64,000 nucleotides of DNA, taken from NCBI GenBank assembly GCA_000004985.1, contig GG738886.1; one strand, written 5' to 3'. The notes beneath the pieces are model-generated. The model ran no database searches. It was not told where the DNA came from and was given only the letters and a program-made list of their open reading frames with translations. The first letter of the stretch is position 1. The number at the start of each line of letters is the position of its first letter. Source of the DNA: Naegleria gruberi (lineage: Eukaryota). The position numbers were made by a program, and so were the translations under genes. Of this stretch, positions 12,080 to 51,514 are shown piece by piece.

Positions 12080-15000
12080 TTATTCGTAAACCTCAGCAAA
12101 GATAGTGTTGGAACGACCAAATATTTCTGGTGAGTACATTTCTTCACATTTGGTTGGTGGAATAATGAAGGATCCGATTTGAGTGGCACGACACAAATGT
12201 TTGAAAGTGTGAGTTCCTTCCCAGAGCAAACTGGAGAATGCTTCAACACGTTCATCTCTACTATTGACATGTTCATACCATGGATAGTTCCACCAACATC
12301 TAGATTTCTTAACTTCACCTGAAGGAGCGTTACCTTTCAATTCAGGATTAATTGGTTCCAAACCAGCAGGTAAAAAGTCAACCAAAGCAACATGATAACG
12401 TCTACTGGTATTAGTGAATGTAATGATAACTCTAACCAATTCACCAGCTTTAAATTTCCAACAGTTTCTTGCCTTATCAAATTGAGCATGAGATGGATCA
12501 GTAACACCCTCATAGCTTCTCTCAATTTGGAATCCATAATCAAGAGCTGGTAATAATAAATTCTTAGGAGCATAGTCCATTCCAATTCTATAGTACAATC
12601 TACCAGGACCTTCCTTCAAGATGGCCAATGTTTGTGCACCTTCAGTGGTAGTAAGTTGTCTCATTGGAATAGTAAGAACATTTTCATCCTTATTTCTTCC
12701 CTTGAAAACTTGTTCTCCACAATAATCTTCTCCAAGCCACATCTTGGCAGTGAAATCAGGAGTGACACCTTCAAAGACATGGAAATAACTGTTGAGAGCA
12801 AGAAGGATGAAAACATTTTCTTGAGTATTGCCCCATCTTCCCTTCTTCTTATGAGCTAAAAGTCCCTTGACAACCTTTGGAATGAGATTATTTTGTGGTA
12901 CCATATGAATGAGCATTTCCAAACAAATTCCATCAGTTCTTCTATCACTGTGCAACATGATAAGCTTGCTGCTTTGCTCATCTCCATAGCTTGTAACAAA
13001 GTTGGCTGTTTGAGCAGTTTCATTGACTCTCATTAAAATATAATTCACAATTTCAGTCGATTTTGTTGTGGCTTCCTTTCCATTGGCAAAGAACATTGCT
13101 GAAGCAGTCCAAGACAAAGTTTCAAGACAAGTATCCTTCAATCCACATTCTGAATATAATTGGTCAGCTTTTTGTTTGGCTCTTGAATCTCCCAATAGGG
13201 CGGCAACATAATAAGCATATGATCTAATGGCATATTTTGATGAAGGAGAGTAATATGTATCACGAATATAATTCTCAATATCACAGAGGAAATTAGTGAG
13301 TTTGGAAACAACATTATTATTGAGAGAATAACCTGCAATCTTGGCTCTAGCAAAGGCATGACCTACGTGGCAAGAAAGGTAAGGACTGACTGAATAATCA
13401 CTTCTGTAAGTCCACCATCCGAATCCACCATTTGGAAATTGTCTTCCATTCAAAATACCCAACGATAATTGTACAGTAGAGTTAAGCATAATTGAGCTTG
13501 GAATATCCTTGACCTTGAATGCTTGAAGTACATCCTTGAGAGCAACAATTGATAAAATCTTACTTGACAATTGTTCACAACATTCAAAGGAATAGTTGTA
13601 AACATAAAGGAAGGCATCAGTCAAGGCAGACAATGCTGTACTACTGGTAGTGATTTGTAAGCCACCAAATTGAGGATAGATATTTTCTGGAGCCTTAACT
13701 GGTTGGAATGTAGTGCAATCACCATCCAATTCACCATAATGAGCAAATGCTTCTGTGGTTGCTGGTGTGAATACTCTGAGTTCCTTTTCAACAGCATCAG
13801 AAAAGTTGATCAATTCGGAAACAGAAACAGCAACTTGGAATTTAGAAATACCAACCTTGGTTGCTTGCATTGGGAATCTCAATTCAGCTCTCTTAAGAGC
13901 AGGGATTTTAACATTCAAACCTCTCTTGGATGGATCCAACAATTCGAGTCCATCATAGGCAACAGCAATATGAACATTCAAATCAATAAGGGTTTGATTT
14001 TGTAAAACACAAGCAAATTCTGCCTTATCACCAAAGTTCAAAAATCTTGGAAGGGAAGGTCTAATTGCTAGTGGCAATTGTGCAACAATTGAAGATTCTC
14101 CCAAGCCGTACAAACTATCTAGTTTGGTAGAAACAGCTGTAATTCTGTATCTCGTCAAATTGTCAGGTAATTTGAATGGCACTCTGGCCTTGCCTTGAGC
14201 ATCTGTTACACATACTGGACTAAAGACAGCAACTGGATTGAAATTCTTTCTGACAACAATGGCAGATCCAACTTCCTCACCTCCTTCACATCCACCAGCA
14301 TCGTCATTACATTCTTCGCACTCTTTTTCCTCACATCTCTTTTTGGATTTCTTACAACTTTTCCTTTCTTGCACTTCTTCTTGGCAATCACAATCATCAT
14401 AACAACAACAGGAACGACATAAACATCCTTCACACTTGCAACATTCACATTCATCATCATCACATTCTTCCTCATCAGAACTATCTTCAGGAGGAGATTG
14501 AATGTTGATATTATCAAAACTCTTGACAAATACGTGGTCTCTCAATGAGAACTCTGAGAAGCTTTGGCCAGTACCAACTATGAATGTGCTCAAAGGATTA
14601 GATATTCTATAGCCAGTCAATGAAAGAACAGCTTCATCAACAGCAACGAGACAAACCTCACTTCCAGCTTGTGGTTTAGAGTTTTCCTTGTCAGTTACCA
14701 AAACATCAACAAAGGTCTCAACACCTGGAGTAACAAATTGCTTCTCTGGAGTGACCAATACATCGAGTTGATGCACTTTGGATGAGACACCAATATAACA
14801 AGTTCCATTTGCGTACGCAGGTTGTTTTGGGAGGTCGAGAGGTAATCCAAGAGAATCACTTCTTGATTCACTACCTTGGAGCATTACACTAACTGTTACA
14901 TTTGGAATGTGTTCTTTGGTAATTTTGAGAGTGAATTCAGTTGATCCAACTTCTGGATCAATGGTGATTGGAATATTATCGATTACAGAATTGAGGCAAA

Positions 15001-18000
15001 CAGTAACAACACCATTAGCCTTACCGTCGAATGGAGATTGAATCAAAATTTTGGCTTCTTCTCCAATTTCATACATTCCTTTGTCTGCAACCAAGAGGGC
15101 TTGTTGCTTTGAAAGTCTTGAACCAACAACATCCTTCTTTGATTTACCACCAGTTACGTATAGGGAGTTATTTGAAGAGTTAGTTAAACCGGTTTCTGTA
15201 TCCTTAATTCTCAATGTGAACTTGTAGTTACCACCCTTATCGAAACTAATAGGATATTTGACTGGTTCAGATTCAGACTTGAATACCTTCTTGAAAACTT
15301 CAACAGATTCATGAACAACACTGAACCCCTTCTTCTTTTCAACGGTTGTTGTAGCAACCAGTTCCATATCAATACCAGGAATAGTATTACCTTCAAGATC
15401 AGTGGTAACCATGAATAAATTGGTTTGAACATTTGGTTTAACAAACATCTTTTCAATCTTCATTCCACAATAATATTTGCAAGGGTGAACAGTAAATGTA
15501 GTGGAATCATTAATAGTTTGACGATTAATATCTTGAACCGATGTTTCAACAGTAATGTTCATTGGAGATTTCTCTTGTCTTTCGGTTTCATCGAAGAGGA
15601 TTGCAATTTCATGTTCACCATCAGAATTACAAACACCTTCAAATGTAACTGGTTTGTAATTTTCACTTCCATAAGTATCATAACACCAATAACGATAAAA
15701 TGGATTTGAGATGTAAGTGGAGAAGTTGAAACCAGAAAAGTTTGGTGGGGTATAACTTGTCTTTGATTGTTTGATAACATAGGAACACTTTGAACCAGAG
15801 AGACCTCCACCTGAGTAGTATGCTGCTTGGGTCTTGAGAATTGTTAAGTTATTAACAATATATCTGCATGGTGGGACAGATGTTGAGACTGTAAATTCTG
15901 GAGTACGGAACTCTTGTACATTAAAGTTTGTATGCATTGTCCTACCGTTGAACTCAATGGAATGAGAGCCCAAGTTAACATTGTCTGGAATTGAAAACTT
16001 AATATCAAAGGAACCATGTTCTGAGATGGTGTATTTTCCAGTGTGATATTTTGCACCTCTAGAATCTTTAACAATGTATTCATAAGTTCCCTTTTTTGGT
16101 AGAGTTGGAATAGTTCTTGATCCGTACTTTTCAACCTTGAGTTCTCTACAAATACCCTTGATGAAAATCTCTTCTCCAGGTTTATAGAGTCCTCTATCGT
16201 TGAAAATATTATATGCTAATCTATCATCAATTCTGTAGTGATAAAGGTATAAATCTGGAATAAAGCAGGTATCATTCAAATAAGATCCAATCAGTGTATA
16301 TTCACTTCCGTTTGAGGTGTGACTAAGAACAGCAATTCCTGTTTCAGAGTCTGGTTTTGTGCTAAATGATGGAAGGAATTTCTTTTGTTTGAAACTAACA
16401 TCAGATTTGATGACAGTTCCATCAATTAAAGAATTGGCCCAACAGTAAACATTACCTGTTCGTGTATCGAAAAAGCCATCCATTGCCATCTTTGTCACCT
16501 GAATCCAGGAAATGTAAACTGGTCTGTATTTCCAATTATCTTTCCAATGTGTTTTGGATGGTTCAACTGCAACCAAAAGTTGACCTAACATGTCATTTGG
16601 ATGTTGTAAGTATTGGGTCAAGTCAATTTCTGTATCAACTGGTTCATCTGGTTGACCATTGGTATTTACCATAGTGTCAAGAACTTTTTTTCCAGAAAGA
16701 GATAATGTTGCATTGGAATAAGCATCATAGTAGAAAACATTGTTTGAATAATCACCTGGTTTAACTTGATAAACTTGGACATGGATAGCTTCAAGATTTA
16801 CACTGAATACGGAGAAGGATGGTTTAGTATTGACAGTAGGATCAATAACCATCATTCCGGTCTTGTAGGCTTGTAAAGATTGAGCTGCTGGTCCAACTTG
16901 GAAAGTAAAGTTATTTTCTCCTGCAAGTTTTTGTCCCCAAACATCTGTTATTTGACCAGAGAGTTGAACTTGGTATGTGGTACGTCCCTTAATATTACCA
17001 GATATTGTCAAGTAATTTCCAGATGGATTAATACGTAATCTTTCAATAGGTGGTTGAATACTTATATGTTCCTCATTTAATAATTCAATATCAATATTAT
17101 TACTAAATGTGAAAGAGAATGGTTCCAATGGAAGCTTTCCACCAGTATGGGAAGTAACTTTGAATTCTGGATAGTTTGTAGCTGTGAAGGAAATATCTTT
17201 TTCTGTTCTCAAAGGACCTTCAATAGATCTGGCTCCTTGCAATAATGTTATAGCGAGGGTTTCTGACAGGGCTACTCTCCTACTTGCTACATCAATTTCA
17301 ATCCAAACATGTCTATTTGGAGCAGAATTTTCCAATTTGTAATTTACAGAATTGTACAATGAGGATGATCTCTTTTCCAATGAAGATTCTTTAAGCTTTC
17401 CTTCAATATAACTCTTTACAACTGAAGTACGGCCATCATTTTGAACCAGCTTGCAAGAGTATCCAGGTATATTTACACTAGAAAAGATTTGGTTTGGATC
17501 AATATCTTGATCAAACTCCATATAAACAAATGGAAATTCGTTAATTGGAACTGCATGGTAACTATTTGGAAGATAGTTGAGCATTGTCAATCTAGGTGTT
17601 TCAAATTTAAAGGAAACATTCTTATCCAATACTCCTCCAACACTAGACTTGGTTTTTTCACAATCAATAGTGACTGTGTATTCCGTAGACATGTCAAATC
17701 TATAATTTGGTTCAAAGAATAAAGTCTTTGCACCCATCCATCTAAATCTACCACCATTCTTTGGGAATGGTTCAATTTTTACAAAAGAAAAATCTTGATC
17801 ATGAACATCTTCAACACCAGACACAGCAACCATTGGCTGAGAGAATGTGATGGAAATATGTGGCACTGATCGATCAACTGGACCTTCTGGCAAATATCTC
17901 ACCACTGCCAAACTTGATCCCAACAATGCTTCTTCTTCCTTTCTCACTTGTTCTGGTTTTTCCAATTTCTCTTCTGGTGGGAATGGAATTTCATTAACAT

Positions 18001-18379
18001 CAGCACTTCTTGGAGGTTTGAGGGTTTTTTCTCTCATGAAAAAGTCACCTTCTTCTGATGTTGATTTTTGAATTTGTGGCAATCTGGCCAATAATTTCTC
18101 TGTCAATTCATCACCAAGAGATTCAACACTTGCACCACTCTTTTGATCCTCATCCTTCTTGACAGAAGTTGCCTTTGATCCAAGTAAAATCATGGCAGTA
18201 GAATCTTCAGGTGTTGGCTCCCTAACATGAATATTCAACCCAACAGTGTAATCTTCATTATTTGCACCAAGAATGCTTGTCTCACTGCAAGGTTCCTCCT
18301 CTTCATAATCCATATCATCATCATAAAACACCATTTTCTCTCCTATTAAAATTAAATAAAAATTATAATTATCAATCAA
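12080..18379 (-). CDS. Alpha-2-macroglobulin / thioester-containing protein family member (2,099 codons from the TTG at 18379; 2,084 aa from the first ATG at 18334), single exon
   Basis: Uninterrupted 6.3-kb ORF. The thioester-region motif is YNYSFECCEQLSS (nt ~13571-13585), cf. PYGCGEQNM. The thioester-domain (TED) motif is RQFPNGGFGWW (cf. RQxDGSFxxW). The C-terminal motif is VALVDFLPAGLEPINPEL, which I recall as typical of bacterial-type A2Ms. A 17-Cys acidic insertion lies at nt ~14275-14500. No signal peptide follows the first ATG. Confidence 0.85.
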   Translation of the reverse strand: MIDNYNFYLILIGEKMVFYDDDMDYEEEEPCSETSILGANNEDYTVGLNIHVREPTPEDSTAMILLGSKATSVKKDEDQKSGASVESLGDELTEKLLARLPQIQKSTSEEGDFFMREKTLKPPRSADVNEIPFPPEEKLEKPEQVRKEEEALLGSSLAVVRYLPEGPVDRSVPHISITFSQPMVAVSGVEDVHDQDFSFVKIEPFPKNGGRFRWMGAKTLFFEPNYRFDMSTEYTVTIDCEKTKSSVGGVLDKNVSFKFETPRLTMLNYLPNSYHAVPINEFPFVYMEFDQDIDPNQIFSSVNIPGYSCKLVQNDGRTSVVKSYIEGKLKESSLEKRSSSLYNSVNYKLENSAPNRHVWIEIDVASRRVALSETLAITLLQGARSIEGPLRTEKDISFTATNYPEFKVTSHTGGKLPLEPFSFTFSNNIDIELLNEEHISIQPPIERLRINPSGNYLTISGNIKGRTTYQVQLSGQITDVWGQKLAGENNFTFQVGPAAQSLQAYKTGMMVIDPTVNTKPSFSVFSVNLEAIHVQVYQVKPGDYSNNVFYYDAYSNATLSLSGKKVLDTMVNTNGQPDEPVDTEIDLTQYLQHPNDMLGQLLVAVEPSKTHWKDNWKYRPVYISWIQVTKMAMDGFFDTRTGNVYCWANSLIDGTVIKSDVSFKQKKFLPSFSTKPDSETGIAVLSHTSNGSEYTLIGSYLNDTCFIPDLYLYHYRIDDRLAYNIFNDRGLYKPGEEIFIKGICRELKVEKYGSRTIPTLPKKGTYEYIVKDSRGAKYHTGKYTISEHGSFDIKFSIPDNVNLGSHSIEFNGRTMHTNFNVQEFRTPEFTVSTSVPPCRYIVNNLTILKTQAAYYSGGGLSGSKCSYVIKQSKTSYTPPNFSGFNFSTYISNPFYRYWCYDTYGSENYKPVTFEGVCNSDGEHEIAILFDETERQEKSPMNITVETSVQDINRQTINDSTTFTVHPCKYYCGMKIEKMFVKPNVQTNLFMVTTDLEGNTIPGIDMELVATTTVEKKKGFSVVHESVEVFKKVFKSESEPVKYPISFDKGGNYKFTLRIKDTETGLTNSSNNSLYVTGGKSKKDVVGSRLSKQQALLVADKGMYEIGEEAKILIQSPFDGKANGVVTVCLNSVIDNIPITIDPEVGSTEFTLKITKEHIPNVTVSVMLQGSESRSDSLGLPLDLPKQPAYANGTCYIGVSSKVHQLDVLVTPEKQFVTPGVETFVDVLVTDKENSKPQAGSEVCLVAVDEAVLSLTGYRISNPLSTFIVGTGQSFSEFSLRDHVFVKSFDNINIQSPPEDSSDEEECDDDECECCKCEGCLCRSCCCYDDCDCQEEVQERKSCKKSKKRCEEKECEECNDDAGGCEGGEEVGSAIVVRKNFNPVAVFSPVCVTDAQGKARVPFKLPDNLTRYRITAVSTKLDSLYGLGESSIVAQLPLAIRPSLPRFLNFGDKAEFACVLQNQTLIDLNVHIAVAYDGLELLDPSKRGLNVKIPALKRAELRFPMQATKVGISKFQVAVSVSELINFSDAVEKELRVFTPATTEAFAHYGELDGDCTTFQPVKAPENIYPQFGGLQITTSSTALSALTDAFLYVYNYSFECCEQLSSKILSIVALKDVLQAFKVKDIPSSIMLNSTVQLSLGILNGRQFPNGGFGWWTYRSDYSVSPYLSCHVGHAFARAKIAGYSLNNNVVSKLTNFLCDIENYIRDTYYSPSSKYAIRSYAYYVAALLGDSRAKQKADQLYSECGLKDTCLETLSWTASAMFFANGKEATTKSTEIVNYILMRVNETAQTANFVTSYGDEQSSKLIMLHSDRRTDGICLEMLIHMVPQNNLIPKVVKGLLAHKKKGRWGNTQENVFILLALNSYFHVFEGVTPDFTAKMWLGEDYCGEQVFKGRNKDENVLTIPMRQLTTTEGAQTLAILKEGPGRLYYRIGMDYAPKNLLLPALDYGFQIERSYEGVTDPSHAQFDKARNCWKFKAGELVRVIITFTNTSRRYHVALVDFLPAGLEPINPELKGNAPSGEVKKSRCWWNYPWYEHVNSRDERVEAFSSLLWEGTHTFKHLCRATQIGSFIIPPTKCEEMYSPEIFGRSNTIFAEVYE

Positions 18380-18573: not shown

Positions 18574-19699
18574 CTATTCTAAAGGTAGTCTATAAACAAA
18601 GTTATCTATTGCTGCCTGGTATCGTAGACGGTCTTGCTGAGATTGTTCTTCATAGTATTGTAATTGTTGTGTGGAGAGTTTTTCCCATGCAGCAGAGATT
18701 TCTGAATAATCAATATCCCATGTTGGATTGATTTTTCTCTTCTCTTCTGTGTACTCTTCGGTAAAGACAAGAAATGGAGCTCTAATGAAATGGGTTCTCA
18801 TTAAATAGGAAGCTTTGTCTTTTCTTGATTCTGGAATGAGTGCCATGTGCAAGTCATTGAATAATTTCACTGGTTGAGTGATTAATCCATTACAATTAGG
18901 TGATCCTGTAATTTGTAAAAAATCTGATAGTAATTTCTCATTTTGAATTTCCATATTACTAAAGGTTGCATGAGTAAGGAAGACGTTAGTTATTACGCCA
19001 TAAAATTCACCATTATCCCTCATGCAGACCAAAAATCGATGAGTACAGAGGAAACAAAATCCAACCCTGAATACATTTTGTAATCTCCACTCTTTTAACA
19101 CAAGTTTCAATTTTTCTTTTTCATCATCTAACAAGGCACCAATTGTTAATTTCATAGTTTCATCAAGATCTTTCAGTCCTATCTTTTTCAAACTCGCAAT
19201 TAAACTCAATACTTTCCAATAAAAATGTTCTTTCCAAGAATATCCCAATAAACTCAATTTTTTCACAGCAGATGAATCTTCCAATATGTTGAAAATTTCT
19301 CCTAATGGCATTGGAGATCCTGCAGACAAATCAACTCGTTGATAATTATCCAAATCACATCCAATCCTATCAAGAGAAAGTAATGGGAACTCTTCACTCA
19401 AATTCTCAACATGACACACAATATTAGAAAAGTAATATTTGCAAAACTGCTCACTCGTAATAAAGTCATTCCACTTCCGACAGACCATTCTACACGGATC
19501 AGTATTTAATGATGATGATTTAGAAACTTCTTCATGATCGGAATTCTGAATTAGTAAATGAATAAATCGATAGCTATATAAAATATTATTGATATGAAAT
19601 AAATACTAACACACAATAACAATTCACACGGATGAAAATATGTAAAGACATGAACAATAATTTCATCTTGTTCAAACCAGGCCTTTGCTTGCTGTTCCA
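18574..19699 (-). CDS. F-box domain protein (353 aa), 2 exons: 19699..19610, 19545..18574
   Basis: Exon 1 is MEQQAKAWFEQDEIIVHVFTYFHPCELLLC. The intron is 19609-19546 (GTTAGT...TTCAG, 64 nt), phase 0. Exon 2 continues NSDHEE...CRMVCRKWNDFITSEQF. The F-box spans the intron. Confidence 0.7.
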
Positions 19700-19857
19700 T
19701 TTTATTATTGTTGCTTTTCCAAGAGCGCCCAAAGTTTTCTCGTTGTTACCGTTACTATTTTTTAATTTTTAAATTTTTAAAAAAAACCTACATCATCAAA
19801 TGAAGCTTGAGGAGTACATGTTCATCATCATTCCAAGATGTGTGGAGTAAAAAGAAG

Positions 19858-20751
19858 TTATTGTAGGGAGCATCGCTTTTTCTTTCTTTTTGGTACAGAT
19901 ATTGCATGAGTCATTAATGCTGATTTTATACACAACTCTACAAACTGTGTCATAATTTCATCACCATCCTCCAATGATGAAATTTCATAATAGGTCAGGC
20001 ATTTGTGTTCCTTACAAAACTTGATAGCATTCTGTACAGTAACATCATCCTCTTTGGTTTTTAAATCCTTTTGAGTTCCTAATATTAACATTGGAGTGTG
20101 TGGCATGTAGTGATTGGCGTAGGGAAGCCACTTTGATTTGATTCTTTCTAAACCGTATACACGTCTGAATGGGAATGTTGCCACAAAGAGATCACTTCCA
20201 AACATTAAGAGAGGAATCATTCGTTCATAATCCATATCAGAAACATCTACAAAATCAATACAGAACTTTCTTCCCTCAATGGAAATGTGATATTGGAATT
20301 GATTATCTAAATTGTATTTACCCAACCTCTTCAATAGATCGGTTACACCAGAATGGTGATCACCTAAAACAGCCACTTTGAAATGAGGTAGTGGACATTT
20401 CAATTCTTCCACTGATTTTTGTAAAATTTTGTCATAGCTTTCGTATTCATAATTTTCAGTAAATTTCAATAATTCCATTCCACACACTTGCAAATAGTGA
20501 AGATAATAATTTTCTTTCGGATCTTCTTTCATTAAAATAGAATAGTGGCATGCATATCCATATTCCAATACTGGTTTTACTTTCGAATAATTTTCCAATT
20601 TCCTATCGTAATGTTTCTTCCACAATAAATCACTCGATCCAATCACATAAAACTCCTTACAAACCATCATGTAATTCACCAAACTCTTCACATTAATAAA
20701 CGAACAAATCAGCATCCACTCATCATTCGAAACACGTTGATGATGATTCAT
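19858..20751 (-). CDS. F-box + degenerate Rho/Ras-like small GTPase domain + polybasic CAAX (KRKKKRCSLQ), about 297 aa
   Basis: The first ATG is at 20751 (MNHHQRVSNDEWMLICSFINVKSLVNYMMVCKEFYVI..LLWKKHY, F-box-like). A GTPase-like core follows: VAVLGDHHSGVTDL (P-loop without Lys), DVSDMDYERM (in place of DTAGQE), LGTQKDL (NKxD retained) and a C-terminal CAAX box. Confidence 0.7.
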   Translation of the reverse strand: MNHHQRVSNDEWMLICSFINVKSLVNYMMVCKEFYVIGSSDLLWKKHYDRKLENYSKVKPVLEYGYACHYSILMKEDPKENYYLHYLQVCGMELLKFTENYEYESYDKILQKSVEELKCPLPHFKVAVLGDHHSGVTDLLKRLGKYNLDNQFQYHISIEGRKFCIDFVDVSDMDYERMIPLLMFGSDLFVATFPFRRVYGLERIKSKWLPYANHYMPHTPMLILGTQKDLKTKEDDVTVQNAIKFCKEHKCLTYYEISSLEDGDEIMTQFVELCIKSALMTHAISVPKRKKKRCSLQ

Positions 20752-20857
20752 TTTTTTGTTATCAAATTTCAACTGTCCTTTTTCTTTCTTCCAAAACTAA
20801 TTGATCTTGTAATTATTATTGATTTGAATTGTAAAATTAAGATTTATTAGCAAAAAA

Positions 20858-21061
20858 ATGAAAAGAAAGGTGGAATGCATCGAATCAGGCAGAGAGAATG
20901 ATACTTCGGAAGTTTATCAACCTAAGCAACAGTATAGAAAATTAACTTCCACTTCATCTCCTTCTGCCTCGACATTATCTACTTCTTCATCGGGGATTGT
21001 TGGGAATTCTTGTCATAATAATTATTTATTTGATGATGAATTTAATATAATGGATCGGTGA
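20858..21061 (+). CDS. Small Ser/Thr-rich ORF (67 aa), status uncertain
   Basis: It has an ATG start but no domain. It could be a uORF or small gene upstream of the DUF4116 gene. No splice joining it to the downstream ORF could be constructed. Confidence 0.2.
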   Translation: MKRKVECIESGRENDTSEVYQPKQQYRKLTSTSSPSASTLSTSSSGIVGNSCHNNYLFDDEFNIMDR

Positions 21062-21093
21062 CTGTAATTTTGAGTGATTTCTTGTTGAGAGGA

Positions 21094-22786
21094 ATGTCCT
21101 ATGATGATACTGATCATTTTCCTCAACAACATCGATGGCTAACAGGTAAATTCCAATCTCAAACCAAAGGGAAGCTTAAGTGGATGAAAAGAAGGGATGA
21201 ATTGTTTGAGAAACGTTCGTCATTCATTCCGATAGAATTTTGCCATGATAAGGAATTGGTTTTGCACATGTTTAAAACAATAGAAATAGATGCACATGTA
21301 TTTGATTGCATTCAAGCTGATGTGATAGACAATGATTTGCTTGTTAGAATTATGAATAGATTGAATGATAGTTCAGTTAGATCTGAAGCAATAGATAATT
21401 TTATAGAACTTTTCAAAAGGTATAATATTACCTTAGACGGAAATTCAAAGGAAGGAAAGGAATTTGTTTCAGCCTATGAGATGGAAAATGGCAAGTATGA
21501 AACAGCCTTAAAACTATTCATAGCAAGTGGGAACGTCTCTAATATATTAAGACAAGATGTTGATTTCATTTACGACGTATTTAAACATTTTAATGGAGAT
21601 GAAAGAATGTTACATATTGTACTTTATTTTTGTATGGCAGATAAGGATGCTTTGCTTAGGTTCGCAGAGATTAATCCACATGTGGTGGCTTGTGCATCAC
21701 AAGAATTTCAACAAGATGAGAACTTTCTTAGAGAACTCATTGATACGAACACTGACTATCTGAAACATTTAATATTTGCTACCGAACACGACAAGAATAG
21801 TGCAAAAGCAAAGAAATGCAGGGAAATATTATCAAATGATTCGTTGAGAAGAAAGATGGAGAATGACGAGAAGTTTATACTACATTATTGTGCTGTCGAT
21901 CCTGAACTTTTCAGGTTGATCTCTCCAAAATTACTAGTTGACAAGAAATTCTTATTCAACATATTGGAAAAGATAGAGAAATGCCCTTTTGCATTGTCTA
22001 CAGTTTTGAATCATATTCCAGAAGTCATGAAAAGCGATTTTGATATTATGTTAAAGGCAGTTAAGATAGATCCTATCTCTTTTATGCATGCTTCTGATCA
22101 GCTAATGCATGACCAAGAATTTGTATTGAAATGTCTTGGACGGTATTCTGATCTAATATTTCCAATGATTCCTAATGAATTCCTTCAAGATAGAGAATTC
22201 CTTATGGAGATGTTGGAAATAAATGGAAGCTTACTTGAGTATGCTCCTTCTGAATTCCAAGGTAAGTTAATAATATTACACATTCTAACAATGTTAAAAA
22301 GATGATGAAGAGATGGTTCTTCAAGCCTTAAAATCTGACGGTGGTTCAATTGATTTTGTCTCTACACGGCTTAAAAACGATAGAGATTTTCTATTAAAAG
22401 CCAAGAAGCAAACAAATCTATATGTGAACCTGCTATCGAGGGCTATTGTAAATGATGAATTCTTACTGGAATCATTAGAATCACCATTTGTGGATGATGT
22501 TTATGAAGAAATAGAAGCACGAGGCTTAAGGGACAATTATGACTTTATGAAAGAAGCCATAAAAAGAGTGTATAGTTACACTGAATTACCAGATAATTTT
22601 AAAGCGTTGAAGGAAATGTCATTATTGGCAATATCAGTTGATGGTAGAGAATTAAAGTATGTTCACCATAAGGATGACCTTGAGGTTCAAAAGGCTGCCG
22701 TGAACCAAAATGGATATTTCATTAAGCAATCACAAGAATTGTTGGACTATAGGTTAGAATGTGCATATTTTGGATGCAAGATTTGA
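21094..22786 (+). CDS. Protein made of DUF4116-like repeats (D-R-E-hydrophobic-VL-x-AV-x-x-N/D-G-x-x-L-x-Y-A), 2 exons: 21094..22261, 22302..22786 (about 550 aa)
   Basis: The intron is 22262-22301 (GTAAGT...AAAAAG, 40 nt), phase 1. The splice yields ...APSEFQDDEEMVLQALKSDGGSIDFVSTRLKNDRDFLLKA, continuing the repeat register. Repeats include DFDIMLKAVKIDPISFMHAS and DQEFVLKCL. The start may lie upstream, since the frame is open from 21058. Confidence 0.7.
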
Positions 22787-28667: not shown

Positions 28668-30425
28668 TTAATTTGAATTTCCTTTTAGAACTTGAGAGAG
28701 TTCAATAATTTCTGGTGATACTTGTAGCCGATGGGAAACATACTCCAAGGCATTATAATCCCTCTTCATTGCTTCAATGACAATTTCAGCACAATCCCTC
28801 ATTTCATTGGAGGCATACTTTAGGGCTAGACCATCATTTTGCACTGCCTTCATGACAACCTCGAATGTATTTCTCCACTCAAAGCTTGCAAATCTGAGAG
28901 CATATCCTTCAGAATTAACGGCTTCCATGATAATGTCTCTATTAGAAATTGTCTCTTCTGTGTCGTGTGTTGTTGGCTTACTTCTGTACTCTGTATTCAC
29001 ATATTCCAACATGGAGCCTTGTCGTTTCACTAATGCCAAAACAACCTCTCTGTCTTTCATCAATTCGGGGGATATATAATTGAACGAATTAGGATTAATT
29101 TCAATAAATCTCAATACAAAGGATTTGCAAGATCTTAGTCTTTCAGAGGCAAAAGTAATATTTTGGGACAGTAATACAAGTTCTTCATCTTCTCCCCAAT
29201 GTATGATAATGTCTGGATCTCTTGCTTTGTATAGGCATCCAAATGCAGTTGGATCTTGGCTAACAGCCGTCATAACAATTTCTCTATCTCGTTTGAGGTC
29301 ATCACTCGCTAAAATAAGATTATGCCCATAATTTCTAACAGCTTGCAATACAATCTCTCTATCATCCCAAAAATCTGGGGCATAGTTGAGTGATTCTCCA
29401 CGATTGGAAACAGCTTACAGTACCAAATCTCTGTTTTGCTTCAAGTCATCATGCAAGTATTGTAGTGACGAGCCAAATGACGAAACTGCTAATAATCCAA
29501 ATTCTAAAGTACCTCTAATTCTCTCTGAAAATTCCTTAATGCACATTCCATCTAATGGAAGAACTATCCTTGCCAGAGAATCATTATCTCGTAATTTTTC
29601 AGAGACCACCTTTATCACTGCAGGATGTTTCTGGGCAACTATCTGTACAATTTCTAAATCATTATTATACATATCCACAAGATATTTGAAAATAGCTGGA
29701 TTTCTTCTAACACATTTCAAAATGAAACCCCTATTCGATTTAATTTCCTTTGAAATAAAAGCAAACGGCTCTGAATCTTTCTTTATCACAAATGTAATAC
29801 TCTTATAGAGCGAACTTTTCAAGCTCATTAAATTCAAAAAATCCAAATTATTTACAGCACTATCCTTAAACATATCCTTCCTAAATCTCAAAATCCAATA
29901 CTTGAAATGTTCAAATTGCTTTCTCCAAGAAACCATTGAATCACACATTGCTATTCCATCTCCAATCGTCCACACCAACTTTCCTTCCGAATTGACTTGA
30001 CTCGTCCACTCTTCAACTGGCCATAAACTTTTACTGGGATGAAACTCTTTAATTGCCTCTTGTTTCCTCTCATGCTTTGATGGCACAATAAACAATTTGA
30101 AAAACTCTTGAGCATATAATGAATCAATTCCCATCACCTCCATTGTTTCGTTCAATTTTTCATCCTCATCTTCCAAAGTCAAATTATTGTATTTCCTTCT
30201 CTCCATTCGTTGTATGAGGAATGAATTAATAATCAGGAGCCAATTCCTAAATTCTCTCTTCTCCACCTGAATGGCCAAGTATTGAAAAAGCCTACAAGAA
30301 AGTGCAAAGCTTCTCCTCGACCTATCATCTAGAAATTCAATTATACTCTGAATCAATTCGGAAGGTAAATTGTTTACCATCTCAATCATCATTGTATTAT
30401 TATTAGCACTAACGAGTAGAGACAT
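28668..30425 (-). CDS. F-box + DUF4116-like repeat protein interrupted by a single in-frame TAA at 29415-29417 (possible pseudogene, programmed readthrough or sequencing error)
   Basis: The ATG is at 30425. The F-box is LPSELIQSIIEFLDDRSRRSFALSCRLFQYL. The DUF4116-like repeats (DREVVLALVKRQGSMLEYV, NRDIIMEAVNSEGYALRFAS, TFEVVMKAVQNDGLALKYAS) continue in the same frame on both sides of the TAA: ...KQNRDLVL*AVSNRGESLNYAPDFWDDREIVLQAVRNYG... The TAA replaces the consensus-variable residue between VL and AV, which is A/E/K/Q/T in the other repeats. Confidence 0.65.
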
Positions 30426-44284: not shown

Positions 44285-44356
44285 TCCCGTGTAGTCCAAT
44301 GGCTAGGATACCTGGCTTTCACCCAGGAGGTCCGGGTTCAATTCCCGGCATGGGAG
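44285..44356 (+). tRNA. tRNA-Glu (anticodon UUC)
   Basis: TCCCGTGTAGTCCAATGGCTAGGATACCTGGCTTTCACCCAGGAGGTCCGGGTTCAATTCCCGGCATGGGAG. The anticodon loop is CTTTCAC. It differs from the Glu-CUC gene at a handful of positions, with a G-U pair in the acceptor stem. Confidence 0.9.
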
Positions 44357-44608
44357 AATACTTTTTACTTTAAAATGCTAACAATATTATTGTAGACATT
44401 CAATCAATTTCCAACATTTTACAAAGTTGTACAAACTATTAGTGCTCTCGCAATTTTTCTTCGAAACCAAAAACTGTCGCGTTAAACTTTGTCCATTGCA
44501 AAATTGCGCCATTCAAAAATCTCCTTCAAAAAAAACAACAAAATACAAAAACACCCATTTCCTCTCAATAAAATTTTATAGAGTTTGATTTTAGAGTTTG
44601 ATCAAAAA

Positions 44609-48587: not shown

Positions 48588-51514
48588 TTACTTTTTGATT
48601 AAATGCTTCTTGTAAATGTTCACTCTCTGCTCTGGTGTTAACTCGTCGAATATTTGTGGATCCCTCTGGAGGATATCGTCATAATTCCTGGCCAAGAGGA
48701 AGAAACAATAATCCTGCAAGACAGCATCTCCAAATTCATTTGCAATTTCCAAAATATGCAATGCTGTATATTCATCAAATTCAAATTGTTTGATAGTTGC
48801 TCTGGCCTTATCTTGTAGCAATGACAATTCCAACAAGTGACTCAGAACATAAATTTCCACAGCATTTCCAGAATTTAAATCCAAAGGATAACTCGGACAA
48901 TAAATGAAACTCATCACTACCACCAAGCTCTGTATACTGATAGAGTCCATGATAAGAATTCTCTTTTGAGCTTCGAAAAATTGAGAGTTAAATGTGGCAG
49001 CAAAGTATTTCGATGAAATACAAAGGATCATTTTGTGTACATTGATGGATCTGTAAATTGGTGGGTTGTAAGTGTGATCTGGAGCTAAAATTCTAACGAG
49101 ACCTTGTTTTACATCTGGAACAGAGTTTGGATCGTTAGATAGCATTGATCTAAATTCTTCAATATCTTCAACATCTTCATTTGGACTAATCTTGAGGAAT
49201 GATGGTAATTCCTTTTCCAAAGTCTTGAAGTTATGAGAGAGGAATGAACTCAATGAAGGCTCTCTCAGTAATGATTGGACGAGTAGAGTAATTTTGAAAT
49301 GAACAGCCATTTGAAAAATATCCTTAAAATGTTCAGATTTCAAATCGGTAGCATCAAACATTCCAGAATAAATATATTGCAAGACTCTTATGAAAGCTCT
49401 CTTGAGATGTTTCACTTCTGGCACATAATTAATTCTGATATAAGTTAAATCTCCATGATTCAACTCATAGGAATCCAAATTTGAAGAATTAACATCTAAA
49501 CCTAGCTTTCTCAGTTCTGCAACCATGATCATCTTTTTTAATTCTGGAAAACGTTGAAGGATGAGTTTGTGTGCACAACATGGAAGTTTTTCTCTTTCTG
49601 TTAGGACCTCTGATTCTTCCTCTTCTGGAGTGAAAATGAAAACCAAGTCTGCATCATCTGGCTGGGTAGTTTCCAACCATTTAAAGTATGTCTCTGATTG
49701 TGCAACAACTGCTGATTTTTGACTCTTCAGAATCTTATCACTTCTAAAACATCTTACCGAGTGTTCAGATGTAATCGATTTCTTTTGGAAGAGTATTCTA
49801 TTCAAGAATGCTCCATATGAATTGAATGTTAAGGAACGAGTTGAACAACCACCCAATAGAACATAGGAGTCAGTAAGTGTCTGAATAGTACCTGCGGTAG
49901 CAGCACTATCAAAATCATTATCAGGGACAGAAGGGACAATAAGCCACCTATTTTCCTTAATGTTATATTCAAAAAAGTTAGTATTCCAATTGGAGCCATC
50001 AAATCCTCCGTACAGTACCAGTGTATTAGAATCTCTCATAAGTAGTGTGGCCATTGTAAGCTGGGGCACAAAATTAGTCTGAGTTGTTTTGTTTGTCCAT
50101 AATTTGGTTTCAATATCGTAGTAGTGCATGTCATTGAATATTTGTCCATCATTATGACCTCCAAATATGAAAATTCTTCAATAGTTACAAAATGAATATT
50201 TGTTTGATTAATTTACCAACTTACCTTCCTTGAGATTGAGTAATAGCAGCACCAGCCCTTGGTGAAATATCAGAAGCAATAGATTCCACTTTTTCAAAAC
50301 TTGTAAATCCACCATGCCATTCATAACAGTTAAAATCATTTGTATATCCAGATTTTCCATAACCTCCAAGTGTGTACAATCTATTGTCATAAACACAGGA
50401 GGAATGTCCACAAATTGGACTAGCAAGTTTACCTGCTGTTTGCCATTCAATTCCTGCACCTGTGATTCGTCCAGTATAAATTTCAGCTGAATAAGTCTTT
50501 GGATCTGTTAAACCTCCAATAATCACAAATCCACCCTTCATTCCATTGAAAGAATGGAATAACCTTGGACTACAGGTTGAACTTTGCTTGACTTTCTTTA
50601 CATTAATGTTCTTTCCTTCCTCCAAAGCAACTTCGAACATGTCATTAGAAAGAGCCCCATTATCTAATATCCATTCCATCAATCAATTCTAGAATCAAGT
50701 CAATTAAATACTTACAAATACCTCCCCAAGTATAAACCTTTGAATCCATGTTACAACTTGTCATCATCATTCTTTGCATTCCCTTCTTCTTCTCAACACA
50801 TTCCTTTGTAAATGAAAGTGATGAATAAAAACTATCCACAAATGCATAATAACCCTTCTTGGTATCTTTCTTATAGTGCAAAATAGTACGTTCCAACTTT
50901 TCAAGATCATCAGTTGGATTTGATTGCTTAACCTTTGGTTTCTGAATGTCATTTCCCTTATTCACCAATTCTGAATCAAAATCCTTGATTGCTGAACTCT
51001 TTTCCACCAGAAAATCCTCAACATCTTGAATGAGAATAAACATGACAACTTGTCCAATCGAATCCCTTGCCTTATTATTCAAAATCTCAAGTAAATCTTC
51101 AATTTCCTTCTCTTGAATTTCTTGTGCCACTCTTCTCATCTCTTTAAACTCTTCATGTTCTTCATACATTTCAGGAGGACAATAAATAAAAACCTTTTCC
51201 ATGGCTGATTGGATTTTAATTTGGGGCACATCACTAGTTGGATATCCCGAAGGAAATTCAACACTCAAAATTAAACCAGTTTGAAACAAGTGATACAAGT
51301 GATCAGTCTTCTTCGAGGTGATTATTTGTCTCTCTATTAATGATGGAATTTTCAATCGGAATGACAATAAATTATCTTCAATGTTATTGCCATGATCAAG
51401 ATTATTATTATCATCATTAGAACAAGACGGCGAGAGTTGCTGAATATCATCAGCATAAATCGACTGTAAAACTTGAAACTCTTCGAACTGGGCTGCTTGA
51501 TTGTTTTCTTCCAT
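48588..51514 (-). CDS. RWD domain + Kelch repeats + two BTB domains (LZTR1-like core with an N-terminal RWD), 3 exons: 51514..50716, 50663..50225, 50175..48588 (941 aa)
   Basis: The ATG is at 51514 (MEENNQAAQFEEFQVLQSIYADD, RWD). The introns are 50715-50664 (GTAAGTAT...TATTAG, 52 nt, phase 1) and 50224-50176 (GTAAGT...TTGAAG, 49 nt, phase 2). The splices restore Kelch motifs (KVYTWGGIY|NGALSNDMF and ..ITQSQGR|IFIFGGHNDGQIFNDMHYYDIETKLW). The BTBs are CCAHKLILQRFPELKKMI and SINVHKMILCISSKYFAATF. Confidence 0.75.

Follow-up and report, generated by a model that had tools for sequence, protein, structure and literature searches.

An N-terminal F-box, a degenerate Rho-like GTPase domain and a polybasic CAAX tail in a single protein of Naegleria gruberi

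Introduction

What is left for a Rho-like GTPase domain to do once its phosphate-binding and switch residues are lost, when it shares a polypeptide with an F-box and a candidate lipid anchor? This question is raised by a gene on the minus strand of a 64,000-nucleotide stretch of Naegleria gruberi contig GG738886.1 (assembly GCA_000004985.1; hereafter the window, to whose positions all coordinates refer). An earlier note, made from the letters of the window alone, had read the gene as an F-box fused in one open reading frame to a degenerate Rho-like GTPase with a polybasic CAAX end, and this core reading held in every test run. Here, we describe for XP_002674152.1, using profile searches and structure prediction complemented with motif alignments and comparisons between paralogues and strains, the gene identity, the domain architecture, the fold and the state of each motif, as well as purifying selection on both domains.

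Neither the gene nor its type of fusion is new to the literature. In the available parts of Herman et al (2021; BMC Biol 19:142, PMC8296547), XP_002674152.1 is listed as "Rac" with the F-box as additional domain (Table S8), at least a dozen further Rac and F-box rows and dozens of Rab and F-box rows are given for N. gruberi (Additional files 4 and 10), and among the domains added to Rab, Rho, Ran and Gα GTPases in Naegleria the F-box is stated to occur most often. The supplementary text reports fusions of the F-box to each of these four GTPase types and puts forward ubiquitination linked to GTPases, and an F-box subgroup with a CaaX motif is noted within the Rab-like clades (PMC8296547). The architecture, called unusual in the earlier note, is indeed so across eukaryotes but not within Naegleria, where dozens of F-box–GTPase genes have been published, XP_002674152.1 among them. 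The same parts of that study hold no comment on the loss of G1, G2, G3 or the Rho insert in XP_002674152.1 or in the ACER01000199.1 paralogue, and a literature search for "pseudoGTPase" together with "F-box" found nothing, with no F-box pseudoGTPase described there. The observation is thus correct, not new: gene and architecture were already catalogued, and beyond the detail of the losses in the G domain we claim no discovery.

Results

Gene and domain architecture

The locus is a real single-exon nuclear gene of N. gruberi and a member of a lineage-specific expansion of F-box–GTPase fusions. A viral or bacterial origin of the window is excluded by its exact match to the N. gruberi NEG-M scaffold. 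The coding sequence runs from an ATG at 20751 to a stop codon at 19858-19860 with an intact frame of 297 codons, and in the NCBI protein comparison XP_002674152.1 is 100% identical to its product. As had been proposed, this one reading frame combines an F-box with a small-GTPase domain (Pfam F-box-like and Ras); from the N-terminus, the F-box is followed by a helical linker (~70 residues, poorly ordered) and then by a G domain derived from Rho/Rac, and the protein ends in a polybasic tail with the CAAX box CSLQ:

19858..20751, minus strand: complete single-exon coding sequence, XP_002674152.1 / EFC41408.1, "rho family member" (open reading frame and 100% NCBI match)
20608..20727, minus strand: F-box or F-box-like motif, residues 9-48, three predicted helices (Pfam, profile search, AlphaFold2)
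20392..20607, minus strand: linker, residues 49-120, helical, low-confidence (AlphaFold2; identity and dN/dS per region)
19903..20391, minus strand: Rho-derived small-GTPase-fold domain, residues 121-283 (Pfam Ras, PDB, AlphaFold2, Foldseek)
19861..19890, minus strand: polybasic stretch and CAAX box KRKKKR-CSLQ, residues 288-297 (sequence, alignment)

All strings quoted earlier are present in the translation, namely EWMLICSF...LWKKHY (residues 11-48), GDHHSGVT (130-137), DVSDMDYE (169-176), TQKD (226-229) and KRKKKRCSLQ (288-297), and so is SSL (258-260). A 98%-identical allele lies on a metagenome contig (L003), and in a second strain the coding sequence has diverged by 1% and the adjacent intergenic DNA by ~5%, with indels.

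Could the F-box and GTPase parts be two genes or transcripts that share a frame by chance? The linker, weakly conserved and modelled with low confidence, is what such an annotation artefact would lead one to expect. However, a single frame runs through both domains without an intervening stop, the intergenic DNA that flanks the coding sequence measures only 158 nt on the downstream and 106 nt on the upstream side, and the same F-box–linker–G-domain layout recurs in the paralogue P0003 and in many other proteins (P0008, P0019, P0040 and P0041), with a linker dN/dS of ~0.4 in the paralogue comparison. An artefact of this kind is therefore highly improbable. A 1408-bp ENA contig, considered as transcript evidence, was rejected; it is genomic, containing intergenic DNA and the intron of the neighbouring gene, and therefore has no bearing on co-transcription.

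F-box, linker and neighbouring gene

The N-terminal F-box-like motif proposed earlier was recovered both by Pfam and by profile matching. Pfam F-box-like (PF12937) covers residues 13-48 with E=1.5e-5 and 25.1 bits, marginally (0.8 bits) above its cutoff of 24.3, and PF00646 reaches 15.8 bits, under its cutoff of 20.5. In a search of the PDB, an N-terminal profile of the protein and its paralogue matches the F-boxes of beta-TrCP1/2 and FBXO3 (E=2.6e-5 to 6e-3), with the F-box of beta-TrCP1 as best match (E=2.6e-5), and nearly all others among the matches listed are F-box proteins as well. The three F-box helices lie at residues 9-17, 21-25 and 27-40 of the AlphaFold2 model, with a modest pLDDT of 52-70.

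A Leu-Pro pair at the start of the F-box is important for contact with Skp1. The present F-box starts without it, having S-N-D-E-W where Skp2-type F-boxes have L-P-D-E-L, and the paralogues P0003, P0008 and P0019 likewise lack Leu-Pro, with Q/N-D/E-D in its place. Judged by its sequence, the motif may bind Skp1.

The linker is the least conserved region, with 29% identity to the paralogue, and its residues 59-99 are modelled at pLDDT <50. In linker and F-box, the confidence of the AlphaFold2 model is too low to read from it any contact of the F-box with the G domain.

Downstream lies a gene that the earlier note had described as a second F-box gene, at 18574-19699:

18574..19700, minus strand: neighbour XP_002674151.1 with a putative 5' exon (19611-19700) and a putative intron (19546-19610), from splice enumeration; not part of the fusion gene

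An adjoining gene is present, with its start at 19700 rather than 19699; its F-box is doubtful, requiring the putative intron and scoring 20.4 bits, below the Pfam cutoff of 24.3, with both of two splice models falling short. A PDB search with the spliced N-terminus of the neighbour gave no F-box match. The public model XP_002674151.1 starts at MVCRKW, without the upstream exon, and neither spliced model is present in the protein collection; the allele of the second strain has indels inside the putative intron. Possibly, the neighbour contains a split F-box and a weak HMG-box-like region at its C-terminus.

Fold and descent of the GTPase-like domain

The G domain is of Rho descent, closest to Rho/Rac/Cdc42 rather than to Ras, Rab, Arf or Ran. 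Pfam Ras matches residues 125-272 with E=6e-9 and 36.1 bits (gathering cutoff, 21.6), and phmmer finds Cdc42 and Rac in the PDB at E ~3e-12, the best 60 sequence matches all being Cdc42, Rac or Rho-like. AlphaFold2 predicts a canonical small-GTPase fold for residues 121-282 with pLDDT >90 and the topology b1-a1-b2-b3-a2-b4-a3-b5-a4-b6-a5, that is, a six-stranded sheet with five helices. The best Foldseek matches are EhRho1, Rac3 and RhoA (target-normalised TM ~0.8), and the best 50 are all Rho-family proteins. The GTPase fold put forward in the earlier note for residues ~120-290 is therefore upheld by Pfam, PDB, AlphaFold2 and Foldseek alike.

State of the nucleotide-binding motifs

The P-loop Lys, the switch I Thr and the Gly of DxxG contact the beta and gamma phosphates and Mg2+. 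We determined the state of the corresponding motifs from alignment A2, which includes Rac1, Cdc42, RhoA and HRas:

20341..20364, minus strand: degenerate P-loop (G1) GDHHSGVT, residues 130-137 (sequence and alignment A2)
20224..20247, minus strand: degenerate switch II (G3) DVSDMDYE, residues 169-176 (alignments)
20065..20076, minus strand: retained G4 guanine-specificity motif TQKD, residues 226-229; TQID in Cdc42 (alignments)
19972..19980, minus strand: retained G5-like motif SSL, residues 258-260; SAL/SAK in Rho (alignment)

The P-loop does not match GxxxxGK[ST], Val136 replacing the Lys (K16) whose absence had been pointed out before, with Thr137 kept. Switch II has DVSDM in place of DTAGQ, so that both the Gly and the Gln are missing, as previously read (G60/Q61 to D/M), with Asp169 (D57) kept. 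The guanine-base motifs G4 and G5 are kept; TQKD, correctly named earlier as a retained specificity motif, and SSL align to TQID/TKLD and SAL, respectively.

Two further losses, of the switch I Thr and of the Rho insert helix, had been overlooked. In switch I (G2), the YxPT segment is lost, the region being ~9 residues shorter and without an aligned Thr (Rac1 T35). The Rho insert comprises ~13 residues between beta5 and alpha4. Here, alignment A2 has a gap of ~17 columns relative to Rac1, Cdc42 and RhoA, and the AlphaFold2 model has no extra helix between E221-226 and H239-248, where the insert would fall.

Because catalytic and phosphate-binding residues are lost, hydrolysis of GTP by this domain would be very unlikely. 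Some binding of nucleotide may still be possible, given G4, G5, the P-loop Thr137 and Asp169. Does nucleotide then still govern the protein? The P-loop might hold GTP, as in Rnd and RhoH, or another nucleotide, as in RhoBTB3, which has been described as using ATP, and thereby gate SCF assembly or partner binding. The four retained features, which have their counterparts in the P0003 paralogue (TKLD, SAL, Thr and Asp), are consistent with such dependence; in addition, most other F-box–Rac paralogues of Naegleria keep GxxxxGK[ST] but often lack Gln61 (e.g. DSTGSD, DTAIHED and DTSGAD), which suggests a graded series of GTPase-deficient, nucleotide-bound proteins. In the present protein, however, the three phosphate- and Mg2+-contacting residues named above are missing at once and switch I is shortened, and we consider it quite unlikely that its function depends on nucleotide.

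C-terminal tail

The sequence up to the stop codon ends in KRKKKRCSLQ, the polybasic and CAAX end that had been read before. The tail Cys lies at position -4 from the C-terminus in a column that is invariant in alignment A2, and the CAAX boxes of paralogues are CFLQ, CSIQ or CLIQ; in CSLQ, the a1 residue is non-aliphatic. A Gln at the X position of CAAX favours FTase, and the protein is accordingly a candidate for farnesylation.

Paralogues, distribution and selection

The P0003 paralogue (approximately the ACER01000199.1 model) is 44% identical, has the same lesions in G1 and G3 and likewise ends in a CAAX box; its P-loop reads GEG-NGVT. Comparison of the two gives pN=0.36 versus pS=0.71 and a dN/dS of ~0.2 or lower, an approximate value as dS is near saturation. 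By region, dN/dS is <0.45 in each of F-box, linker and G domain. The persistence of the same lesions in a 44%-identical paralogue at such a ratio argues that the degenerate domain is maintained by selection. The dN/dS between the two strains is 0.47 and, coming from only 9 differences, uninformative.

An exhaustive HMMER search among 1.8 billion representatives gave 1164 matches, only two of them below E=1e-30; no orthologue outside N. gruberi-like genomes was detected in this search, nor was an N. fowleri orthologue visible among its matches. Word-indexed searches, run both with the protein alone and with a profile of three sequences, found only the protein itself and P0003 and no series of orthologues. 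A related copy in another sample (L004) is a decayed pseudogene with an in-frame stop and a frameshift. The lack of orthologues beyond N. gruberi-like genomes together with this decayed copy suggests a young, fast-turnover subfamily, which may be dispensable.

Is the gene itself then a decaying, non-functional member of a birth-and-death family, its motif losses a sign of relaxed constraint? The restricted distribution and the L004 copy are in line with this idea, as would be the two-strain ratio if it were informative, and the available parts of Herman et al describe recent birth-and-death evolution in F-box–Rab-like clades (PMC8296547). The 297-codon frame is nonetheless intact in two strains, the degenerate motifs and the CAAX box are kept in the paralogue despite a nearly saturated pS, and the table entry of Herman et al for XP_002674152.1 has no pseudogene flag (PMC8296547). 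On balance, decay is improbable.

Discussion

How could such a protein work? We favour, with a probability of roughly 0.55, a farnesylated, membrane-tethered SCF substrate receptor that does not switch, a Cul1 counterpart of RhoBTB–Cul3. The farnesylated tail and the basic patch would anchor the protein to a membrane, which is plausibly the plasma membrane, while the F-box would dock it onto Skp1–Cul1. The Rho-like domain, no longer able to switch between GTP and GDP, would bind proteins constitutively and in this way choose targets at the membrane. Prenylation, Skp1 binding, the absence of a nucleotide switch and the recruitment of substrates are all steps that we infer from sequence and model.

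The GTPase-deficient Rho proteins Rnd1-3 and RhoH and the pseudo-G domains of p190RhoGAP show that a small-GTPase fold with substituted catalytic residues can form a constitutive binding module. Rnd and RhoH are GTP-binding proteins whose P-loop is intact, whereas the domain described here lacks the Lys of the P-loop, the Thr of switch I and the Gly of DxxG but has G4 and G5. A Rho-family protein without the insert helix is EhRho1 of Entamoeba histolytica. Although EhRho1 (PDB 3reg/3ref) is the best structural match to our G domain, it has canonical G1-G3, functions as a GTPase and lacks an F-box.

Yeast Rcy1 is one of several prenylated F-box proteins. Others, FBXL2 (PMC9988375, PMC5627969) and FBXO10 (PMC11042265), bring SCF to membranes. 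In contrast to the Naegleria protein, FBXL2 and FBXO10 bind substrates via LRR or other repeats and are geranylgeranylated (X=L), whereas here X=Q predicts farnesylation.

Similar to the Naegleria protein, RhoBTB1-3 combine an atypical Rho-derived G domain and a cullin-docking module in one polypeptide; no classical GEF/GAP cycle is known for them, they undergo auto-ubiquitination, and RhoBTB3 has a C-terminal CAAX box (PMC4931677). The adaptor of RhoBTB is a C-terminal BTB domain (Cul3), whereas that of our protein is an N-terminal F-box (Skp1–Cul1); the fusions are independent, and Naegleria also has true RhoBTB genes. TbFRP, a FYVE–F-box–Ras-like GTPase of the Euglenozoa, a related excavate lineage, likewise has an F-box upstream of a small GTPase together with a membrane-targeting device. 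That device, however, is a PI3P-binding FYVE domain and not a prenyl tail, and the G domain is Rab18-like and not Rho-like; the authors of the TbFRP study found no Naegleria orthologue (PMC3593210).

Both systems bear on a further explanation, in which the F-box links SCF to the very protein that bears it; ubiquitination would then determine how much of this Rho-like protein is present at the membrane, and the G-like domain would be cargo or effector, not receptor. The same idea was proposed for TbFRP, which is rapidly proteolysed (PMC3593210), Cul3 complexes containing RhoBTB proteins take these same proteins as substrates (PMC4931677), and the combination of F-box and Ras domain fits self-directed turnover equally well. 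A G domain without G1-G3 and the Rho insert, on the other hand, would have little obvious signalling output that needs regulation, and auto-ubiquitination and substrate recruitment can coexist. We regard control of its own turnover as a possible, if unlikely, main role.

Returning to the reading as a substrate receptor, what might the Rho-like surface recognise? The protein and its paralogue could be a small clade, specific to N. gruberi, of "decoy Rho" E3 receptors that act independently of nucleotide, that is, farnesylated SCF adaptors at the plasma membrane whose dead Rho-like surface captures regulators and effectors of Rho (GAPs, GEFs, GDI and kinases) for ubiquitination. We offer this idea tentatively and hold it to be rather doubtful; if true, an SCF ligase would prune the Rho-signalling machinery with a pseudo-Rho as bait.

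In conclusion, F-box–GTPase and BTB–GTPase fusions are strikingly abundant in Naegleria and suggest an extensive link between small GTPases and cullin-RING ubiquitination in a deep-branching eukaryote. To this picture, the gene adds modestly a pair of F-box–Rac paralogues that have lost phosphate-binding and switch residues, are under purifying selection and have kept a predicted farnesyl/polybasic anchor. Because these G-domain residues are lost while selection and anchor remain, the pair is well suited to testing if the G domain of such fusions acts as a switch or as a mere scaffold.

Results

Gene model and domain architecture

The window has a GC content of about 34% and is tightly packed with long open reading frames. 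The earlier note had placed a 297-residue F-box–GTPase fusion at 19858-20751 and named no strand; its coordinates are right, the frame lies on the minus strand, and every motif string that it quoted is found in the sequence:

20751 to 19858, minus: coding sequence, ATG at 20751, TAA at 19858-19860, unbroken frame of 297 residues
residues 11-48, minus: F-box-like string, EWMLICSFINVKSLVNYMMVCKEFYVIGSSDLLWKKHY
residues 130-137, minus: P-loop string, GDHHSGVT
residues 169-176, minus: switch II string, DVSDMDYE
residues 226-229, minus: G4 string, TQKD
residues 288-297, minus: C-terminal string, KRKKKRCSLQ

Mechanical ORF calling extends the frame to a TTG at 20772, upstream of the biological start. 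The protein matches XP_002674152.1 (EFC41408.1; 'rho family member [Naegleria gruberi strain NEG-M]') with 100% identity; that record places it on a 358,576-bp contig with precomputed Pfam domains F-box-like and Ras, and the window is accordingly nuclear DNA of N. gruberi. One rival explanation is a mis-joined gene model; the frame is continuous across both domains. A genomic contig from metagenome ERR1078381, representing a second strain, carries a 98%-identical allele with six amino-acid and three synonymous changes.

Pfam-A places Ras (PF00071) at residues 125-272 (E=6e-9, 36.1 bits versus a gathering score of 21.6) and F-box-like (PF12937), marginally, at residues 13-48 (E=1.5e-5, 25.1 bits versus a cutoff of 24.3); PF00646, the classic model for the F-box, scores under its Pfam-A cutoff. 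Because the F-box call is marginal, we searched all PDB sequences with an independent profile built from the first 60 residues of the protein and its closest paralogue. This profile matched the F-box regions of beta-TrCP1 (E=2.6e-5), beta-TrCP2 and FBXO3, and its weaker matches are also F-box proteins, nearly without exception. For the C-terminal half, the best 60 PDB matches by phmmer are Cdc42, Rac and an Entamoeba Rho (E about 3e-12 to 2e-10). In an AlphaFold2 model based on an alignment of 58 sequences, residues 121-282 reach pLDDT values above 90 and follow the canonical order b1-a1-b2-b3-a2-b4-a3-b5-a4-b6-a5; pLDDT is just 52-70 in the helices of the F-box (residues 9-58) and below 50 in residues 59-99. 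The top 50 Foldseek matches in the PDB are exclusively Rho-family structures (EhRho1, Rac3, RhoA, RhoC, Cdc42), with target-normalised TM scores of about 0.8 for the top matches. Given these sequence matches, the predicted fold and the structural matches, together with the Pfam hit, the small-GTPase fold proposed for residues ~120-290 holds.

State of the GTPase motifs and the tail

We aligned the protein with Rac1, Cdc42, RhoA and HRas (the Cdc42 stretch matches the PDB alignment) and with three F-box-Rac relatives. In G1, Val136 takes the place of the Lys in GxxxxGK[ST] and the following Thr137 is retained; in G3, Asp169 is retained and Gly60 and Gln61 are replaced (DVSDM). G4 (TQKD; TQID in Cdc42) and G5 (SSL versus SAL) are retained, and the CAAX Cys lies in an invariant column. 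The lesions and retained motifs described in the earlier note, including the polybasic CAAX tail, are thus borne out. The note had overlooked two further losses: switch I is about 9 residues shorter, leaving the YxPT Thr of G2 without a counterpart, and the Rho insert helix is missing (a gap of about 17 columns).

By established Ras-superfamily enzymology, a domain that lacks the P-loop Lys, the switch I Thr and the DxxG Gly/Gln all at once is very unlikely to hydrolyse GTP or to work as a classical switch. Since G4 and G5 are retained, the G domain might bind nucleotide, the sequence being compatible either way, and a rival reading is that the protein is still nucleotide-dependent. By the classical rule, a CAAX box with a terminal Gln is a farnesyltransferase substrate, as is predicted for CSLQ, and the six basic residues directly upstream appear to resemble the second membrane signal of K-Ras4B.

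Paralogues and selection

At E<=1e-3, an exhaustive HMMER search across 1.84 billion representatives found 1164 proteins, which are essentially GTPases of the Rho/Ras family. Just two have E values under 1e-30: one is the query protein, the other P0003, a paralogue with 44% identity. P0003 is nearly identical to a manually built model on ACER01000199.1 that the table of Herman et al. gives for N. gruberi. P0003 has the same lesions (GEG-NGVT, DLSDIGY), with TKLD at G4, SAL, and the tail KPKKCFLQ. By parsimony, the degenerate state is older than the duplication.

Could the gene be a decaying paralogue? Between the two copies, pS is 0.71, near saturation, and pN is 0.36 (Nei-Gojobori). The resulting overall dN/dS, about 0.2, indicates purifying selection; by region it is about 0.33 in the F-box, about 0.41 in the linker, and well under 1 in the G domain, whose dS is saturated. 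Between the two strains, 1.0% of coding sites differ, compared with about 5%, indels included, in the 158 nt of intergenic DNA downstream. The paralogue dN/dS and the low strain divergence of the coding sequence argue against neutral decay of this copy.

Separately, a Logan contig (SRR25266747) carries at 1002-1396 a decayed relative of the GTPase half: its switch II region contains an in-frame stop, the frame is shifted (+3/+2) and G4 has been deleted, but its C-terminus still reads KRCLIQ. This points to pseudogenisation inside the subfamily in a related organism, in keeping with the birth-and-death dynamics that have been described in this family.

Neighbouring genes

The public model of the downstream neighbour may be incomplete on the 5' side:

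18574..19488, minus: XP_002674151.1, 'predicted protein', 304-aa ORF starting MVCRKW

An upstream ATG at 19700 opens a 30-codon exon (19611-19700, MEQQAKAWFEQDEIIVHVFTYFHPCELLLC), which can be joined to the ORF in frame via a 65-nt (19610..19546, GTTAGT...TTCAG) or a 125-nt intron. In the second strain, two single-base indels both fall inside both candidate introns. The added exon would supply the N-terminal half of an F-box-like motif. For both splice variants, Pfam F-box-like scores only 20.4 bits (E=4e-4), under its 24.3 cutoff, and the spliced N-terminus has no F-box match in the PDB; a C-terminal HMG-box-like match is weak (18 bits, under cutoff). That this is another F-box gene, as had been suggested for 18574-19699, is plausible and weakly supported, with the start corrected to 19700. 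Because F-box genes are frequent in the window, the adjacency carries little weight.

Other features of the window are:

1508-2503, minus, and 36775-38829, plus: a DUF5601 domain and a VPS9 domain, both Rab5-GEF-type modules, in two separate genes
12080-18379, minus: 2099-aa intron-less ORF with alpha-2-macroglobulin domains (bMG10, A2M_BRD, A2M, MG2, Big_5), the MG10 being bacterial-type; may be of bacterial origin
20858-22786, plus: DUF4116-repeat gene, ORFs 21058-22305 and 22313-22786 separated by a single stop or short intron; start probably ATG at 20858
28668-30425, minus: two DUF4116-repeat ORFs, one (29415..30425) with an N-terminal F-box over cutoff (24.2 bits versus 20.5), a further F-box fusion in the N. 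gruberi genome
33110-33180, plus: tRNA Gly-tcc
38938-39009, plus: tRNA Glu-ctc, overlapping the start of mechanical ORF 38944-41232, whose true start therefore lies further downstream
44284-44357, plus: tRNA Glu-ttc
48588-50682, minus: Kelch repeats (50221-50682), then a Kelch plus BTB ORF (48588-50129); probably one intron-split Kelch-BTB, Cul3-adaptor-type gene

The first DUF4116-repeat gene is divergent from the F-box–GTPase gene, and because only 106 nt separate their start codons, a common bidirectional promoter is likely.

Discussion

The best-supported reading of the fusion protein is a membrane-tethered SCF receptor. A farnesylated Cys294 and the basic patch would anchor it on a membrane, the F-box would dock onto Skp1-Cul1, and the Rho-derived domain, presumably unable to cycle and hence a constitutive binding module, would select partners. 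The analysis shows the architecture, the fold, the motif states and the purifying selection; prenylation, Skp1 binding, the loss of switching and the recruitment of substrates are inferred. Functionally close precedents exist: FBXL2 and FBXO10 are prenylated F-box proteins that bring SCF activity to particular membranes (PMC9988375, PMC5627969, PMC11042265), and RhoBTB proteins, which have no known GEFs or GAPs, combine an atypical Rho domain with a Cul3 adaptor in one fusion, with a CAAX C-terminus in RhoBTB3 (PMC4931677). RhoBTB proteins are also auto-inhibited and auto-ubiquitinated (PMC4931677); self-directed turnover is a rival explanation for the protein studied here. The main doubts about the receptor mechanism are the marginal F-box score, the replacement of the canonical Leu-Pro at the F-box start (the sequence there reads S-N-D-E-W), a feature common to the closest paralogues, and the retained G4 and G5.

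Both the gene and its architecture have been published before. The whole set of Ras-superfamily genes in N. gruberi and N. fowleri was curated by Herman et al. (2021, BMC Biol 19:142, PMC8296547); their Table S8 lists XP_002674152.1 as 'Rac' with additional domain 'F-box' and no pseudogene flag, directly followed by the ACER01000199.1 paralogue, along with at least a dozen more Rac+F-box rows, some also with Kelch or BTB, and dozens of Rab+F-box rows. Our scan of the top HMMER matches likewise finds F-box plus Ras-family combinations to be common among these relatives: F-box-Ras (P0008, P0019, P0040), 2OG-Fe(II) oxygenase-F-box-Ras (P0041), Ras-F-box (P0014) and Ras-Kelch-F-box (P0046, P0119). 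One of these last two continues into Vint (Hint-like), giving Ras-Kelch-F-box-Vint. Beyond Naegleria, Euglenozoa have the FYVE-F-box-GTPase TbFRP (PMC3593210). The architecture is therefore not new; the description of it as unusual applies to eukaryotes in general, but not to Naegleria, where this very protein is documented. The observation itself is confirmed and its structural interpretation supported.

Most other F-box-Rac paralogues keep GK[ST], and several lack Gln61. In the parts of Herman et al. covered here we found no comment on the G1-G3 and Rho insert losses of this pair, and our literature search found no paper combining 'pseudoGTPase' with 'F-box'. The only increment is a pair of putative pseudo-GTPases among the Naegleria F-box-Rac proteins, namely this protein and its paralogue, both of which bear a CAAX and are maintained by selection.
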